From Felis catus (taxonomy: Eukaryota), in NCBI RefSeq assembly GCF_018350175.1, contig NC_058368.1, positions 20,152,001 through 20,216,000 on the forward strand: a DNA stretch of 64,000 bases. Direction: 5' to 3'. Shown here one piece after another: positions 2,153 through 56,631 of the stretch; the stretch's first letter is position 1, and each line of letters starts with the position of its first letter. The notes under the pieces are model-generated. The model saw only the letters and a program-made list of their open reading frames with translations, was not told the DNA's origin and did no database searches. The position numbers and the translations under genes were made by a program.

Positions 2153-2587
<435 letters not shown>

Positions 2588-3490: not shown

Positions 3491-4220
3491 AAGAAAACAC
3501 GTGGGGAAAGCACATGACTCAAGCCCTGGTCTTCCAATGAGTGGTATATAAAACACTAAGGCTAGAAATGCACATGAAGATATTGATACACGAGGTAATT
3601 ATACCTATAATATCACATGCTTGTGATGTGAACTATTCTCATAAAATAAGAGCACTTTCATGGAGAGCGGAGTTATACCAATATCACTCCTACCAAGGAA
3701 AGGCACCTCTCCAAGGAGCAGAGCATTAGCTGGAAATTAATGCAAAGAAGAGAAAGTTCAAGGTGTTTTCAATGACTATGCCACACGTACAGCCTGCAGC
3801 AGGTTTTGCTAAGTTGTCTAACTTTGGTATCAGACAGGATTGGTGCAAGAGAAGCCTCGTCCGGAGTCACTTCCTATACGTTTGCAAATAAGGCCATTGG
3901 GCTCAATGGTGTTTACTTCATATAAAGGTTCAAGGTGGAAAAACATCCTGTCTTCACTAACTTTTCCTGCAGCCAAGCCCACATATAGTGTTTGGATGGC
4001 TTAGTACCATAGGGGTGGGATGTGTGTGTGGGGGGTGTCTTTCTGTGTATGTGTTGGGAGGTGGCAGGTCCCAGCCCAGGGTCATTTGTGAAATGACCCA
4101 GTGCCAGTGTTCTTGCAGCTCCTATAACCTCCCACAAGGACACTCTGCAGTCAACCCCTTGTGCTCCTGGGCTCCCCATGACCACATCCCTGCCCGCCAT
4201 GGTTCACCATGCTTACTCAC

Positions 4221-4305
4221 GGACTCTTGCATCAGACTGTTGTGTCTCCTTGCTTGATCCTGTTCTTGTGGGTCTCCAGCATTAACGTGCTCCCCTTTTT
4301 AAAAA
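4221..4305 (-). promoter_or_regulatory. Candidate SERPINE3 core promoter and ~50-nt non-coding first exon
   Basis: The coding exon has a splice acceptor, so an upstream exon is implied. TATA-like TTTTTAAAAAGG (palindromic core 4296-4305) lies in non-repeat DNA, followed ~75 nt later on the minus strand by donor GTGAGT (4220-4215). CACGTG E-box at 4687-4692. Confidence 0.4.
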
Positions 4306-5854
4306 GTGGAGCAGAGTCTGCTTTGAATCACAAGACAGCGCAGGGAGGAAGCTGGCAACTGCCGTCTCTGCCGGCGATGTCTCTACCACTCGGTCCAAAT
4401 TCCTGGAGCCTGAGGTCCTGCAGAGAGCCAGGAGAAGCACTGCCCCGGCCAGCAAAGCCCAGATCGGAAACAGAGCAGGCCCTGGGGAGGGAGCCAGCCA
4501 CACCCGTCAAGCCTTCTTAGGCTTGTGACCTGGTTGTACCAGCAAGGAACCCCTCATCTAGCCCTTTGTCACTTTGAGGAATTCCACTGATAACTCTGCC
4601 GTCCCAGGGTTTGCTGGGTGCCAGGTACCTAATGCTTCTCCCCTCCTCCTGTGGAGAAAACAATAAATCAGTCATTGGGCACTGGACACGTGTAGCAAAT
4701 GAAATTCTGCAGAAGAGAAAAGAAACGATGCAAGATATGGCCTAATAAAATTGAAACTTGTCTTATTTATTGTTAATCAAAGTGCATGCACTCGTTTATG
4801 CGTAATACGGGCACTGTTAACAGTCTTGCTCTTCTTACATACAATACTTAATAAATCCGGCGACTTAATTTGAGAAAGAGACTATGTTGTCCATGAGCAA
4901 GTGCACGTTTGCAGCAAGTATAAGCAGATTCTGTCAAAAGTCTGTCCTTGTGACCAATTCAGAATTCCATACATTTCTATTAAGGTCTTAGGCATTGTAT
5001 TAAGTTCAAAATAGAGGATAGGCTATAGGTTGCTACAAGTTAAAGAAAAGAAAGTGACATTTCGAAATGAATGCAATTCTTAGTAATTATCTCTTAGGCA
5101 TGTGTTAGTGTTAATGTTTGAAATGGAATGAGGCTTGTTAAATTTTTTTTTTTTTTTGGTCTGACCTCTACTCATACCGCCATTATCAGTGGGCAATTTG
5201 CTTTAAAGCAGGGTTTATTTCTGACCCTGGGGCCTGGGATAGTTTTTCGGTGTTAGAATAGTTACAGTTCTGTAATTGTTTTACTTCACATCTCCCCAGA
5301 TCCTTAATTTAGATAAAGTGCATTGTTGCATGTTTTGGATTCTAAGCCATAGCACGATAATGGAATAAGTATATATATCTCATTCTATAGCACCCAGAGA
5401 GGGCGTTCCTTCCTTTCTTCCTTCCATCCGTCCATCCATCCATCCACCCATCCAACAAATAACCTCTCCCTTGCCTGCTAGGTTCCAAGGCCCTGTGCTA
5501 GGTCCTGTGGTTGAAGAACAGAACCAGCAACCTGGGCTCAGCTCTCACGAGACCCAGAGGCTTGTCCCACTGAGTGCAGGCTTTTGATGTTGACGCTGAC
5601 AGTGTTCAGAAGAAAGCTGATCATAAGGACAATGGTGGTAACCTAACAAGGGCTGTCTCCCAACGCTGTGAGTTCCCCAGGGCTGTTATCTGAGCATAAG
5701 CTGATTCACTCTTTGCCAGTGGTGGGGTTAGGGGGATGCTTATAAAAAGATTTCCCAAATTGGAAAAAGGTCGGGCTACATGACTTCTATCAACACTGCC
5801 CTCCTAAGTCTAAGAATATATTATTCTAAATTGCTTTTTAAAAACGCTTTCAAG

Positions 5855-6072: not shown

Positions 6073-7326
6073 TAAAAACGCTCTCAAGGAAAAATGCTAG
6101 GGTAATTCAGCACACAAGAAATATTTCCCGTATGGGTTAAACATTTCAACACGAACGAAAGATGAACCGCAACCGATTTTTCTTTTGTGTACTCAGCCGC
6201 GACCCTGGGTAAGCCACTGTGTTTCCTGCCCATTTCTGTGGTAATCACGCTCGTTTCTACCTTGTAGGGACGTTGGTGTTACTGCCAAGGAGGCCTCCGT
6301 CCTTGGAGATATCTATACACTATTATAACAACAAAAATAGTGGACACTGTTGAGATCGCATTCCAGATACTCTGTTATATACTTTGCATTTACAGTTACA
6401 CTGAGTCCTCACAGCGATCCTACGAGGAATGTATTGTTAGCCCCATTTGGCAGATAACAACAGTAAGGCTGAAAGAGCTTAAGGTGGTTGCCCAAGATCC
6501 CACAGTTAGACGCCAAGCTGGGTTTGAAGCAGGAACACTTGACTCCAAGGCTCACGCTCTTTGCCACCGTCTTGGTGTCTGTCAGGAACCCCGGGATGCT
6601 TGAAATCCCCCTTGGCTGTGGGGTTCGAGGACATTTAGTGCCCAGCCCAGACTGTTGGCTCATCACGTGTGCGCAGTCCTCCCACATTCACCAGGAATGC
6701 TATGGTGAATCACATGTAGAGAGACTGCTGTGACGTGCAGTGCCTTTAATTATCATTTTTAATTTTTCCCAGCCTGACTTCTTACCGGTATAAACAAATC
6801 GCCTTCGAACCCAGAGGTCTACTGACTACGTGATGGAGAGAAACGGCGCATTTGAGTTCTGTTAGTACGTAATTAGTAGAAGGACATCTCCTCTTTGTGG
6901 TGTGGGCTGCTTGTCTGGGGTTGTACAGGGACAGTCCCCATTTTTTCTCTGCCCTTGAGAAGTTTGCCGTGGAAAGACGGCACTGTGACCAAATTGTTGT
7001 GGGGGCACAACAGAGGAGTCCCGGGCACTGCTAGAGTAAGCCAGGGAGCGACACGAGGGAACCCAGCACACGGGGCCACAGATGGGGACAAAACCAGCAA
7101 GTCCTTCCAGGGAAACAGGGCAGGTGGCCCCGCCTGTCCCTCCAGGAAAGAGACAGAGTGGGTTTCCCTCTGTCACAGGTGATGCCTGACACCCAGCCTT
7201 CCAGTTCTTCACAGGTACCCAGTGCACGGACTCAAAATGAACCACTGCACCTTCTCAGCTTCTAACGCCTTTCAGTATGGTGTGGTGTGGACAGCACAAA
7301 GGCCTGGCTGCAAGTCAGTGCTTCCT

Positions 7327-8525: not shown

Positions 8526-10350
8526 TCAAGTAAACTCTACGCCTAGTGTGGGGCTCCAGTTCACAACCCCGAGATCAAGAGTTGCATGCTTTACTGACTG
8601 AGCCAGCCAGGCGCCCCCAGAACAGTTTCATTGCCCTGGGAGTCCTCTGCGCTCTGCCTACTTGTTCCTTCCCATCTCCCACCTCCAACCCCTAAGAGCC
8701 ACTGATCTTTTTACTGTCTCTATTGTTTTGCCTTTTCCAGAATGTCATGGAGGTGGAATCATATAGTACATGCCCTTTCAGACTGAATTTTTTCACTTAG
8801 CAATATGCATTTAAGATTCCTCCATGTCCTTATCGGATTAAGGGTTAGTATCCAAAAGATACTTACTTAAGGTTAGTATCTATAAAGAATACCAAACTCA
8901 ACAACTGAAAAACAAATTATCCAGTGAAGAAATGGGCAGAAGACATGAATAGACACTTTTCCAAAGAAGACATCCAGATGGCCAACAGCATATGAAAAGA
9001 TGCTCAACATCACTCATCAGGGAAATACAAATCAAAACTACATTGAGATACCAGGGAGCAACACGAGGGCACCCAGCACACGGGGCCACTGTGCCCAAAA
9101 TTAACAACTCAGGAAACAATAGATGTTGGCCAGGATGTGGGGAAATGGGAACCCTCTTGCACTGTTGGTGGGAATGCAAAATGGTGCGGCCACTCTGGAA
9201 AACAGTGTGGAGGTTCCTCAAAAAATTAAAAATAGAACTACCTTGCGACCCAGCAATAGCACTACTAGGAATTTACCCAAGGGATACAAGAGTGCTGATT
9301 CATAGGGGCACTTGTACCCCAATGTTTATAGCAGTGCTTTCAACAATAGCCAGATCATGGAAAGAGCCCAAATGTCCATCAACTGATGAATGGATAAAGA
9401 AACTGTGGTTTATATATACGATGGAATACTACTTGGCAATGAGAAAGAATGAAATCCTGCCATTTGTAGCAACGTGGATGGAACTGGACGGTATTATGCT
9501 GAGTGAAATAACTCAGTCAGAGAAAAACAGATATCATATGTTTTTACTCATATGTGGAACTTGAGAAACTTAACAGAAGACTGTGGGGGAGGGGAAGGGG
9601 GAAGGGAAAAAATTACAAACAGGGAGGGAGGGAGGCAAACCATAAGAGACTCTTAAATACAGAGAACAAATTGAGGGTGAATGGGGAGTTAGAGAGAGGA
9701 GAAAATGGGTGATGGGCATTGAGGAGGGCACTTGGGATGAGCACTTGGTGTTGCATGTAAGCGATGAATCATGGGAATCTACCCCCCAAACCAAGAGCAC
9801 ACTGTATACACTGTGTGTTAGCTAACCTGACAACACGTTATATTAAAAAACAAGATTTCTCTATGTCTTTTTGAGGCTTCGTAACTCTTTTCTTTTCATT
9901 GATGAATAATATCCCACTGTATGGATGTACCACAGTTTATGTATCCAGTCCCTTATGTCTTGATTGCTCCCAATTTTTGGCAGTTGTGTGAAAGTTGCTA
10001 CAAACATTTGTATGTGGGTGTTTGTGTGCACATAAGTTTCAGCTCAACTAAGTAAATGCTTGGGAGCATGAATGCTGGACTGTGTGGTAAGAGTATGTTT
10101 CGTTTCGTAAGAAACCACCAAACTGTCTTCCAAAGTGGCTGCACCATTACGGATTCTCACCAGCAGTGAATGAGAGTTCTGGCTGCTTCACATCTTTGCC
10201 AGTATTTGGCATCGTCGGTGTGTCTGTTTGTTTCCTTATTGTTAAGTGTTAAGGATTCTTTGTATATCTTGGGCACAAGTCCTTAAATCAGATACGTTTT
10301 TTCAAATATTTTCTCCCAGTTTGTGGCTTGTCCTTTCAACTCTTAATTCT
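8170..10350 (-). mobile_element. Old L1 (L1MB/L1MC-like) 3' fragment, interrupted by a short SINE with a (TTTC)n tail (~8480-8618) and a younger L1
   Basis: Typical antisense L1M 3' motifs (ttgccttttccagaatgtcat, ccaaagtggctgcaccatt) continue on both sides of the insertions. Confidence 0.75.
8832..9851 (+). mobile_element. 5'-truncated felid/carnivore L1 (ORF2 C-terminus and 3' UTR)
   Basis: ORF 8992-9564 is the L1 ORF2 C-terminus ([19 protein letters not shown]). TSD AAGATTCCTCCATGTCCTT at 8813-8831 vs AAGATTTCTCTATGTCTTT at 9852-9870 (16/19). Confidence 0.95.
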
Positions 10351-30579: not shown

Positions 30580-31909
30580 CACTGGGTGTATATTTGAGCC
30601 CCAGCTCAAATGACACATTAGTAGTATATACAGTGGCTCTATTAGTATGGCCGCTGGGTCCCTGCGGTTACCCTCTTCTAGGATCACAACCCCTCATTAT
30701 GCCCTAGATGCGATTTTTTGCATCACTGCTAACTCCACAGCCTTGGAGCCGTCTTGGAGCCTTTCACCCACCAAGTTCCCCTCATTTTGCGGTAATGACA
30801 GACCCTGGGAAAAGTGCAGATTGGATTAGCACGCAGTGCTGTTATTTCAGCGCCCTGGGGATTCACAGCTGTGAGTCACAGCTGTGAAAAGCTGGTTCAG
30901 TCCCACTCCCTTTCTGTAAATCAGCAATGACCTAAACAAACTAACCTCAATGCCCAGGAAATTTAGCTGGAGACAGTGCTCTGAAAGCTGAAAGGCACTG
31001 GACAAAATTGAAACGTTGATGGTTCTCAGAAGCCAAAGCTGAAAGCCAGAATCTATTGATTTGTATGTCTAGCCCCTCCGGAGCTCCAATTTCTCATGGA
31101 AATTGCTATTCAAAATTGTTTAAATGGGAACGCTATTGTGCTCCAGTCTCACTGGAGAATTCCATCTTACCAAGAGACTGACTTTGCAGGTCTAATCTTT
31201 GTGTAGTATTTTCAAATTAAACATCAACGCGATGCACTCTTTTTGCTCCTAAGAGAAGGAAGATGTAGTGTGAAATTCCTCAGGAATTCCTTGAGGAAGT
31301 CACAGGGTATCGAAGGAGAAGTTGCGGGTTCCCAGCGGCCCCGGCCAGTGAGAAGCACTCCCAGGAGCAGCTGAATGAAATAGGACACAAGTGTGTGGGA
31401 GGGACCGATTAACTCTGATCTGTCTGGGGAGGTGATAAATGAAGCATCATTTCCTTGGTCTTCTCAGACTCTATTTCTTCCATTGCTTTGAGTTGCCTTG
31501 TGGATCGAGAGGTGATGGAGGACAGGAGAGGTGAGTAGAGCGGAAGAACCCTTTGCATCTGAACTGGAGGGAAATGCAGGCTAGAGCAAAACCTAGTGAG
31601 CTGCTAGAACAAAAAGGAGCTGGGGAGGGGCAAAGGCACGGAACGCCTGTGGTGGGCTGGTTTGAGAGGGCTTCTCTGAAGAGAATCATGATGTGGTGTG
31701 AGACCCACACCTGGGAACAATGGCCGAAACTTGTGCAAAATTACACATTGGCCAAAATGGTGAATTAGCAAAAATGAATTTGCCCTTTTCCCTTTCAGAT
31801 GTCAATTTTATTTTGCCACAGGGGCAGTGAGCAATATTTCATGGGTTATTAAGCACTGCCCTATTAGAATGTTGACCATTTTGAATAGTTTTGGATTTTG
31901 TTTTTATTA

Positions 31910-54833: not shown

Positions 54834-56631
54834 ACCACATCTCTTTTTTCAGAGGGAGGGAGGGAGAGAGAGTGTGTGCAAGTGAGAGAGGGGCAGAGAA
54901 AGAGAGTCCCAGGAGAGGCAGAGGGAAAGGGAGAGAGAAGTGGGGCTTGAGCTCCCAAACTGTGAGATCATGACCTGAGCTGAAGTCAAATGTTAAATGA
55001 CTGAGCCACCCAAAGACCTATACCATATCTTCTTTATACATTCATCAGCTGATAAACATTTGGGCTCTTTCCCTAATTGGAATATTATTGATAGTGCTGC
55101 TATAAACATTGGGGAGCATGTGTCCCTTCAACTCAGCATTTTTGTACCCTTTGGATAAATACCTAGTAGTGCAATTGCTGGGTTGTAGGATAGTTCTATT
55201 TTTTTCCCTCCAGGGTACATTTACTTAATTTTTTAAAAATTTATTCTCAAGTTAACATACTGTGTAGTCTTGGCTTCAGGAGTAGAAACATCACATATTT
55301 TCCCCACCCCCCATCAACTCTGTTTGCTCTCTGTACTTAAAGTCTCTTTAAGGTTTTGCCTCCCTCTTTGTTTTTATCTTATTTTTCCTTCCCTTCCCCT
55401 ATAATCATCTGTTAAGTTTCTCAAATTCCACATATGCATGAAATCATGTGATATGTCTTTCTCTGACTTATTTTGCTTACCATAATGCCTTCCAGTTCCA
55501 TCCATGGTGTTGCAAATGGCAAGATTTCATTCCTTTTCATCGCTGAGTGGTATTCCATTGCATATATATATATATATACACATCTTCTTGGAATATACAC
55601 ATTCCATTGCATATATGCACATCTTAATTCATTCATCAGTTGATGGACACTTGGACTCTCTCCATAATTTGGCTATTGTTGATAGCATTTCTATAAACAT
55701 TGGGGTGCATGTGCCCCTTTAAATCAGCACCCCTGTATCCTTTGGATAAATTCCTAGTAGTGTCATTGCTGCGTCATAAGGTAATTCTATTTTTAATTAT
55801 TTGAGGAACTTCCACACTGTTTTCCAGAGTGGCTGCACCAGTTTGCATTCCCACCAGCAGTGCAAGAGGATTTCCCTTTCTCCGCATCCTTACCAGCATC
55901 TGTTGTTCCCTGACTTGTTAGTTTTAGCCACTCTGACTGGTGTGAGGTGAGGTCTCAGTGTAGTTTTGTTTTGTATTTCCCTGATGATGAGTGATGTTGA
56001 TCATCTTTTCATGTGTCTGTTGGCCATCTGGATGTATTCTTTGGAAAAGTCTCTATTCGTGTATTTTGCCTATTTCTTCACTGGATTATTTGTTTTTAGG
56101 GTGTTGAGTTTGGTAAGTTCTTTATAGATTTTTGACACTAACCCTTTATTGGATAGATCATTTGCAAATATCTTCTCCCATTCTGTTGGATGCCTTTTAG
56201 TTTTGTTATTTTCTTTACTGTGCAGAGGTTTTGTTATCCTAAACAATTTTTTTTTTTAATGTTTGGTTATTTTTGAGAGAGAGAGTGCGAGCCGGGGAGA
56301 GGCAGAGAGAGCGGGGACACAGAAGCTGAAGCAGACTCCTGGCTCTGCTTTTAGCACAGCGCCCAACTTGGGGCTTGAACCCATGAAAGTTTTTACCTTG
56401 ATGAGGTCCCAATAGCTCATTTTTACTTTTATTTCTCTTGCCTTCAGAGACCTATCAAGTAAGAAGTTGCTGCAACCCAGGTTAAAGAGGTTGCTTCCTG
56501 TTTTCTTCTGTAGGATTTTGATGGTTTCCTGTCTTACATTTAGATCCTTCATCCATTTTGAATTTATTGTTGTGTATGGTGTAAGAAAGTGGTCCAGGTT
56601 CATTCTTTTTTTTTTTTTAATGTTTACTTTT

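Follow-up and report, generated by a model that had tools for sequence, protein, structure and literature searches.

A 39-bp patch in a dead feline L1, very probably templated by unique DNA two kilobases upstream

The locus and the host L1

The window, that is, the whole 64-kb stretch of Felis catus DNA analysed here, begins inside SERPINE3, a minus-strand gene whose coding exons lie at 2240–2503 and 778–882. Pfam was run on 138 of the 148 long reading frames between 1 and 32 kb (the 10 omitted frames belong to SINEs or to the patched L1) and matched the serpin exon only. An Rfam scan of 4–14 kb gave no match. Upstream of the gene lies the truncated L1 that carries the scars described below.

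2240–2503, minus strand: first coding exon of SERPINE3, with a Serpin Pfam match and a 97–100% match to Lynx and Prionailurus serpin E3
8813–8831, plus strand: left TSD, 19 bp, the best in a flank-against-flank scan (16/19 identical to 9852–9870)
8832–9851, plus strand: 5′-truncated feliform L1 (last part of ORF2, 3′ UTR and a short A-tail remnant), 1,020 bp
9852–9870, plus strand: right TSD, from the flank-against-flank scan

This L1 is located ~6.3 kb upstream of the SERPINE3 start codon, inside an older antisense L1, and only the last fifth of its ORF2 remains. It bears the features of an insertion by target-primed reverse transcription: a TSD, 5′ truncation, a short A run at 9845–9851 and, on the bottom strand at the left edge of the left TSD, the L1 endonuclease-type site TCTT/AA, which was called with the consensus given in PMC11702581. 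The element shares 82% identity with the window copy at 41.8–42.7 kb and 77% with the copy at 55.3–56.1 kb. At sites where the two closest window copies agree, its private divergence is 21/511, or 4.1%. A twin-priming 5′ inversion was considered as an explanation of its structure and rejected: 8832–9050 is co-linear with the 3′ part of the element, save for one inverted 9-mer.

Other features of the window were recorded on their own account. The stretch at 4219–4419 (minus strand) precedes the SERPINE3 start codon by 1.7 kb and resembles the N-terminal extension found in a bat serpin E3 model (85% over 67 residues); this segment is a conserved element, perhaps an upstream exon or a regulatory region. 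Near-perfect palindromes of 26–27 bp are found in single-copy DNA at 4288–4313 and 30862–30888. The region from 33000 to 62000 is dense with L1 fragments, almost all in minus-strand orientation, and contains nested SINEs.

A 39-bp patch copied from upstream DNA

The first-pass annotation of this stretch had described a segment of the L1 that matches upstream DNA in the same orientation at 37 of 39 bases, and this match was reproduced.

7041–7079, plus strand: donor (template), non-coding and single-copy in the window (multiplicity 1)
9051–9089, plus strand: 39-bp patch, a direct copy of 7041–7079 that replaces 18 nt of L1, or 15 nt when the shared CCA is assigned to the L1

The two segments lie 2,010 bp apart, start to start. 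The longest exact match between them is 19 nt, and one of the two mismatches is a CpG-to-CpA transition. A self-BLAST of the 64-kb window returned 634 HSPs, which were filtered for a length of at least 24 nt, an identity of at least 88% and one side that is single-copy. Three HSPs passed: two self-palindromes and the patch/donor pair (E 5.9e-10), the only such non-palindromic pair in 64 kb. A third copy of the 39-mer with three or fewer mismatches does not occur in the window, and two matches to the 39-mer were obtained in 0/100 shuffles.

The donor is positioned 1,734 bp to the left of the left TSD of the L1 and ~4.5 kb upstream of the SERPINE3 start codon. The ORFs that overlap it have no Pfam match, the segment itself has no Rfam match, and no SERPINE3 isoform maps there. 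Strong hairpins are likewise absent from both donor and acceptor (raw energies of −8.8 and −7.6 kcal/mol over 81 nt). Because the donor lies in unbroken unique DNA and the patch interrupts a repeat, parsimony places the direction of copying from 7041–7079 to 9051–9089. A search for further templates for 8810–9130 (exact matches of at least 8 nt, 2.8–15 kb) gave, beyond the donor and a 10-nt internal repeat, only matches of 8–12 nt that are at chance level or belong to other repeats. Inverted 9-nt matches to 9090–9098 at 10269 and 10493 were set aside and are given no evidential weight.

A pair of this kind would also be seen if the 39-mer were part of an L1 subfamily or of a dispersed repeat, with the upstream match as a second copy, the case that the first-pass annotation had named as its own refutation. 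For this comparison, paralogous L1 copies served as a proxy for the pre-event allele. The patch is absent from 5/5 window L1 copies, from 4/4 metagenome L1 loci and from 32/32 ORF2 fragments that cover the site. The metagenome loci come from a scan that yielded nine L1 loci, none of them orthologous, of which four reach the patch site and five do not; neither donor nor patch was found in any of the nine. The ORF2 fragments were retrieved by words from the patch region, which gave 34 candidates of 104–333 aa, 32 of them L1. The repeat explanation therefore fails in all 41 L1 copies covering the site and, with a donor that is single-copy in the window, it is almost certainly wrong. As far as these samples reach, the patch is no subfamily feature. 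In one carnivore-type metagenome locus (L002, ~640–680), an upstream ORF2 stretch seems to jump straight into the region compared, which suggests an internal deletion in that L1 copy.

Junctions and reading frame

Relative to all nine DNA L1 copies that cover the patch site, 39 nt have entered and 18 nt have been lost, for a net gain of 21 nt. This result bears out the earlier statement that the segment replaces normal L1 and gains seven codons, and the translation offered with that statement is correct. At the left junction, a microhomology of CA (2 nt) is certain. The CCA microhomology that had been proposed stands in these two bases, but its third base depends on the copies chosen for comparison: it is C (CCA) in 4/4 L1 loci from outside the window and T (TCA) in 5/5 window copies. 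The right junction is less simple.

9089–9096, plus strand: right junction, for which three parses exist

At this junction the donor and the L1 both go on with AG; the copy has TG, and position 9094 also differs from L1. Three readings fit these eight bases: L1 that has acquired two substitutions, donor positions 7074–7081 copied in inverted form (7/8), or 9067–9076 copied in inverted form with a 2-nt slip.

The patch is contained in a stop-free reading frame.

8992–9564, plus strand: 190 codons free of stops, a remnant of the ORF2 C-terminus extending across the patch, from the ORF scan

The description of the patch as in frame is accurate in that the frame is kept. Frame-keeping carries no weight, however, because one-third of indels keep the frame and because the host is a dead copy, truncated to 1,020 bp, with a 1-bp deletion (~8988) and a stop just upstream. 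In a substitution-only model, a 153-codon ORF2 stretch stays stop-free in 14–36% of simulations at 4–8% random substitution. The 190-aa product has no exact match in the protein collection and belongs to no Pfam family. Nothing speaks for this frame as a gene, and a functional reading is rejected.

A second templated scar near the 5′ end

A second templated scar, overlooked in the first-pass annotation and new here, starts 12 bp inside the 5′ junction of the L1. Two small deletions lie between it and the patch.

8844–8880, plus strand: second templated scar, consisting of a 9-mer (X, 8844–8852), a 5-nt loop, inverted X (8858–8866, 8/9), a 5-nt loop and X again (8872–8880)
8988–9016, plus strand: small deletions between the two scars, one of 1 bp (~8988, a frameshift) and one of 3 bp (~9013, in a short triplet repeat)

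The scar at 8844–8880 adds a net 19 nt relative to other L1 copies and is the product of hairpin-primed fold-back synthesis. In a test designed post hoc, both of its matches were reached in 4/20,000 shuffles of the inserted 21-mer. That the length of this 21-nt insert equals the net 21-nt gain of the patch is taken for chance. The 3-bp deletion is recurrent: the codon is missing in 4/30 ORF2 fragments that cover it and also in the 33-kb copy.

All four indel events in the ORF2 part of the element (the 8844–8880 scar, the 1-bp deletion, the 3-bp deletion and the patch) fall in its first 265 nt, and none falls in the next 470 nt. The binomial p for this clustering is 0.006–0.04, varying with how events are counted, for a boundary that was picked post hoc. 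The 5′ tract shows no excess of substitutions (5/143 versus 16/368). Among nine other L1 copies, one fold-back-like scar was observed in ~5,800 aligned columns. It belongs to the long L1 at 55.5–55.7 kb: a local duplication of ~45 bp at ~55550–55630 (minus strand), in the 3′ part of ORF2 and distant from the 5′ end, has an inverted 7-mer in its spacer, together with a TA expansion. This scar, deep in its element, indicates that fold-back-like scars arise far from 5′ junctions too. The presence of a second scar at the 5′ junction of the patched L1 tilts the odds towards integration time, short of proof.

Age of the scars

Patch and donor differ at 2/39 positions (95% interval 0.6–17%) and the two TSDs at 3/19. 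Both values fit the pairwise difference of ~8% that the 4.1% private L1 divergence would predict if all were of integration age (P 0.37 for the patch and 0.20 for the TSDs). The agreement is loose and the intervals are wide: an origin on the day of insertion and one millions of years later are not separable by these values. At 0.5% divergence, two patch/donor mismatches would be expected with a P of only 0.016, which supports the earlier judgement that they mark a real, old event and no artefact. An assembly or sequencing artefact, in which nearby sequence was joined chimerically, would also have to account for the CpG-to-CpA nature of one mismatch, for the shortness of the longest exact match and for the resumption of L1 in register after a small deletion; such an origin is extremely unlikely.

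Class and timing of the event

The 37/39 match at 2,010 bp and the absence from 41 L1 copies support the proposal that nearby DNA templated the insertion, and the patch is very probably a templated insertion formed by a microhomology-mediated template switch. It is a real, old scar in a dead L1, without sign of function, and an ordinary mark of template switching; templated scars of such a class have already been published. The strengths given here to class and timing are matters of judgement and were not computed as posteriors. Of the mechanisms first suggested, MMBIR-type switching and an L1-integration intermediate are retained, but polymerase theta is a poor fit at 1.7–2 kb. Its templates lie within ~20 bp of the end (PMC11541566), so that a template at 1.7–2 kb is better suited to MMBIR/FoSTeS/SDSA-like switching or to an L1-integration intermediate.

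Several steps can be read directly from the locus: the target was cut at TCTT/AA, ~1 kb of L1 was inserted with a 19-bp TSD, 15–18 nt of L1 were swapped for 39 nt of upstream DNA, and a fold-back triplication was made at the 5′ end. That the patch arose during this same integration is favoured by a narrow balance of arguments and is the slightly better reading. It is suggested by the clustering of indels in the 5′-most 265 nt, by the fold-back 12 bp from the junction and by the loosely agreeing ages. Against it stand the template 1.7 kb away, the 219 nt of co-linear L1 beyond the patch, the counter-example in the 55.5–55.7 kb L1, the unraised substitutions and the recurrent 3-bp slip.

An origin at integration can be envisaged as follows. 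In target-primed reverse transcription, the cDNA would grow on the bottom strand, in the leftward direction. Once the second nick had been made, resection of at least 1.75 kb on the bottom strand of the upstream end would have left the top strand exposed, and the 3′ end of the growing L1 cDNA may have paired with this top strand by a few bases. Extension by 39 nt, carried out by ORF2p or by a host polymerase, would have been followed by release and by a return of synthesis to the L1 template 15–18 nt further on through the CA/CCA microhomology. A further ~170 nt of L1 would then have been copied, two fold-backs made on the 9-mer and the end joined to the TSD overhang, itself left intact. Of four geometries, the combination of an upstream donor with direct orientation is presumably the one open to a cDNA 3′ end at a resected upstream end, and to that extent it would fit integration; the exposed top strand would be the only template to give an upstream donor in this orientation. 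The complete round trip within one germline integration, in which synthesis passes from the L1 template to 39 nt of single-stranded DNA 1.7 kb into the resected upstream end, back to the same L1 template and through a double fold-back with the TSD overhang intact, is put forward tentatively and is, taken as a whole, rather improbable.

A scar of later repair or replication is a possible, if not the favoured, account of the patch. Here a break or a stalled fork in the long-fixed L1 would have freed a 3′ end. After annealing 2 kb upstream and extension by 39 nt, this end would have annealed once more, 15–18 nt further on. The process may have been FoSTeS/MMBIR/SDSA-like, by way of the resected other end or a lagging-strand template, and polymerase theta is a possible agent, although the confinement of its templates to ~20 bp from the end (PMC11541566) argues against that variant. 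The 5′ fold-back would then belong to the same error-prone tract or to a separate event. Cross-junction annealing at any break also yields a direct orientation, and a similar local scar exists in the body of the 55.6-kb L1. Patches are also easiest to spot inside repeats, so that the find in an L1 is partly one of ascertainment, which counts for later repair. Templates of micro-insertions reportedly lie 2–6 kb from deletion breakpoints (a finding attributed to Abyzov, 2015), a figure that is given no evidential weight here. Events of this general kind are common in germlines without any L1: a local template no more than 10 kb away is reported for 871 of 1,651 complex human deletions, and two or more duplicated pieces for 191 (PMC4617611); germline templated insertions of at least 25 bp number ~100 per person, a quarter to a third of them complex (PMC8421209). 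Later repair would, however, need either a second scar that happens to fall 12 bp from the 5′ junction or two rare events within 260 nt.

The template may instead have been RNA. The L1 reverse transcriptase would have switched onto a nascent plus-strand transcript over 7041–7079, copied 39 nt and gone back to the L1 RNA. One L1 co-inserted with local pre-mRNA is described in PMC10191854, and ORF2p is described as jumping between templates in PMC10830420. SERPINE3, the sole gene identified in the vicinity, is a minus-strand gene, however, and its sense RNA would give an inverted patch, the wrong orientation; the donor also lies upstream of its start codon. Template switching to RNA is accordingly judged very unlikely.

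Taken alone, one scar in an L1 fragment that is dead and intergenic has no known consequence. If patch and fold-back were both of integration age, an L1 cDNA end would have reached 1.7 kb into its flank before going back to its template, a greater distance than that of the templates usually described at L1 integration sites. If the round trip is true, the patch would preserve a trace of kilobase resection at the upstream end while the L1 integrated, and fossil L1s that contain distal patches might serve to gauge how far resection extends and how ORF2p jumps templates in germ cells. A census of fossil-L1 patches against 5′ junctions would constitute a test of upstream-end processing in retrotransposition.

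Comparison with known systems

Among the closest known systems are the templated insertions seen in de novo L1 events. A literature search for L1 insertions with templated, kilobase-upstream, SDSA-like inserts, with most subscription papers outside its scope, found only the tumour study 10.1101/2024.08.27.596794. That study reports 22 templated insertions among ~3,600 somatic (tumour) solo-L1s and explains them by cDNA that leaves the RNA and pairs with nearby DNA; the templates are shorter than 250 bp and typically no more than 15 bp away from the insertion site. Three L1 insertions with DNA templated near the site are reported from a cell model (PMC11702581), and ORF2p is reported to copy DNA and extend hairpins in vitro, as well as to jump templates there (PMC10830420). 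As in the insertions described in 10.1101/2024.08.27.596794 and PMC11702581, short genomic DNA has here been copied into an L1 with a TSD, an A-tail and an EN site, and the template length of 39 bp lies well within the range of the tumour class. In contrast to those cases, in which a distance of 15 bp or less is typical rather than required, the template here lies 1,734 bp from the left TSD. The patch also differs from them in that it sits 219 nt inside the L1, with co-linear L1 on both sides, and is germline and old.

The deletions classed as ‘Ins with Dup and Del’ in PMC4617611 and the MMB-TIs of PMC8421209 share a different set of features with the patch: a deletion with an insert whose template is at most 10 kb away, junctions with short microhomology or microhomeology, no function and several template switches in one tract. 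The PMC4617611 class takes templates of at least 10 bp within 10 kb, and the patch has its 37/39 template at 2,010 bp. As for the microhomology of that class, 2–3 nt are found at the left junction, and at the right junction the AG common to donor and L1 is replaced by TG in the copy. The deletion that belongs to the class is present as well, with 18 nt lost (15 nt with the shared left bases as L1), although, unlike the deletions described in PMC4617611, only these 15–18 nt are missing. The yeast-derived MMB-TI signature given in PMC8421209 has its template within ~100 bp, a distance that includes the 8844–8880 scar and excludes the patch at 2,010 bp.

Polymerase theta end joining, as described in PMC11541566, resembles the present case in its microhomology of ~2 nt, its cross-junction direct copies and its fold-back copies, and it suits the 8844–8880 scar well. 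In the large human data set of that paper, in which templates were searched for up to 500 bp, they lie within ~20 bp of the break end; the patch template is ~100 times further away. Template distance thus separates the two scars, with the fold-back at 8844–8880 inside the range of polymerase theta and the patch, at 2 kb, outside it.

The 8844–8880 scar has further counterparts of its own. Short inverted duplications at yeast breaks (PMC11724301) are similar in that a very short inverted copy is made by hairpin priming beside a DNA end. Fold-back inversions at L1 5′ ends, reported for 4 of ~1,200 insertions (~0.4%; PMC10191854), are likewise similar. Unlike the fold-backs described in these two sources, the folded sequence here is L1 and not target DNA, and its order is forward–inverted–forward.
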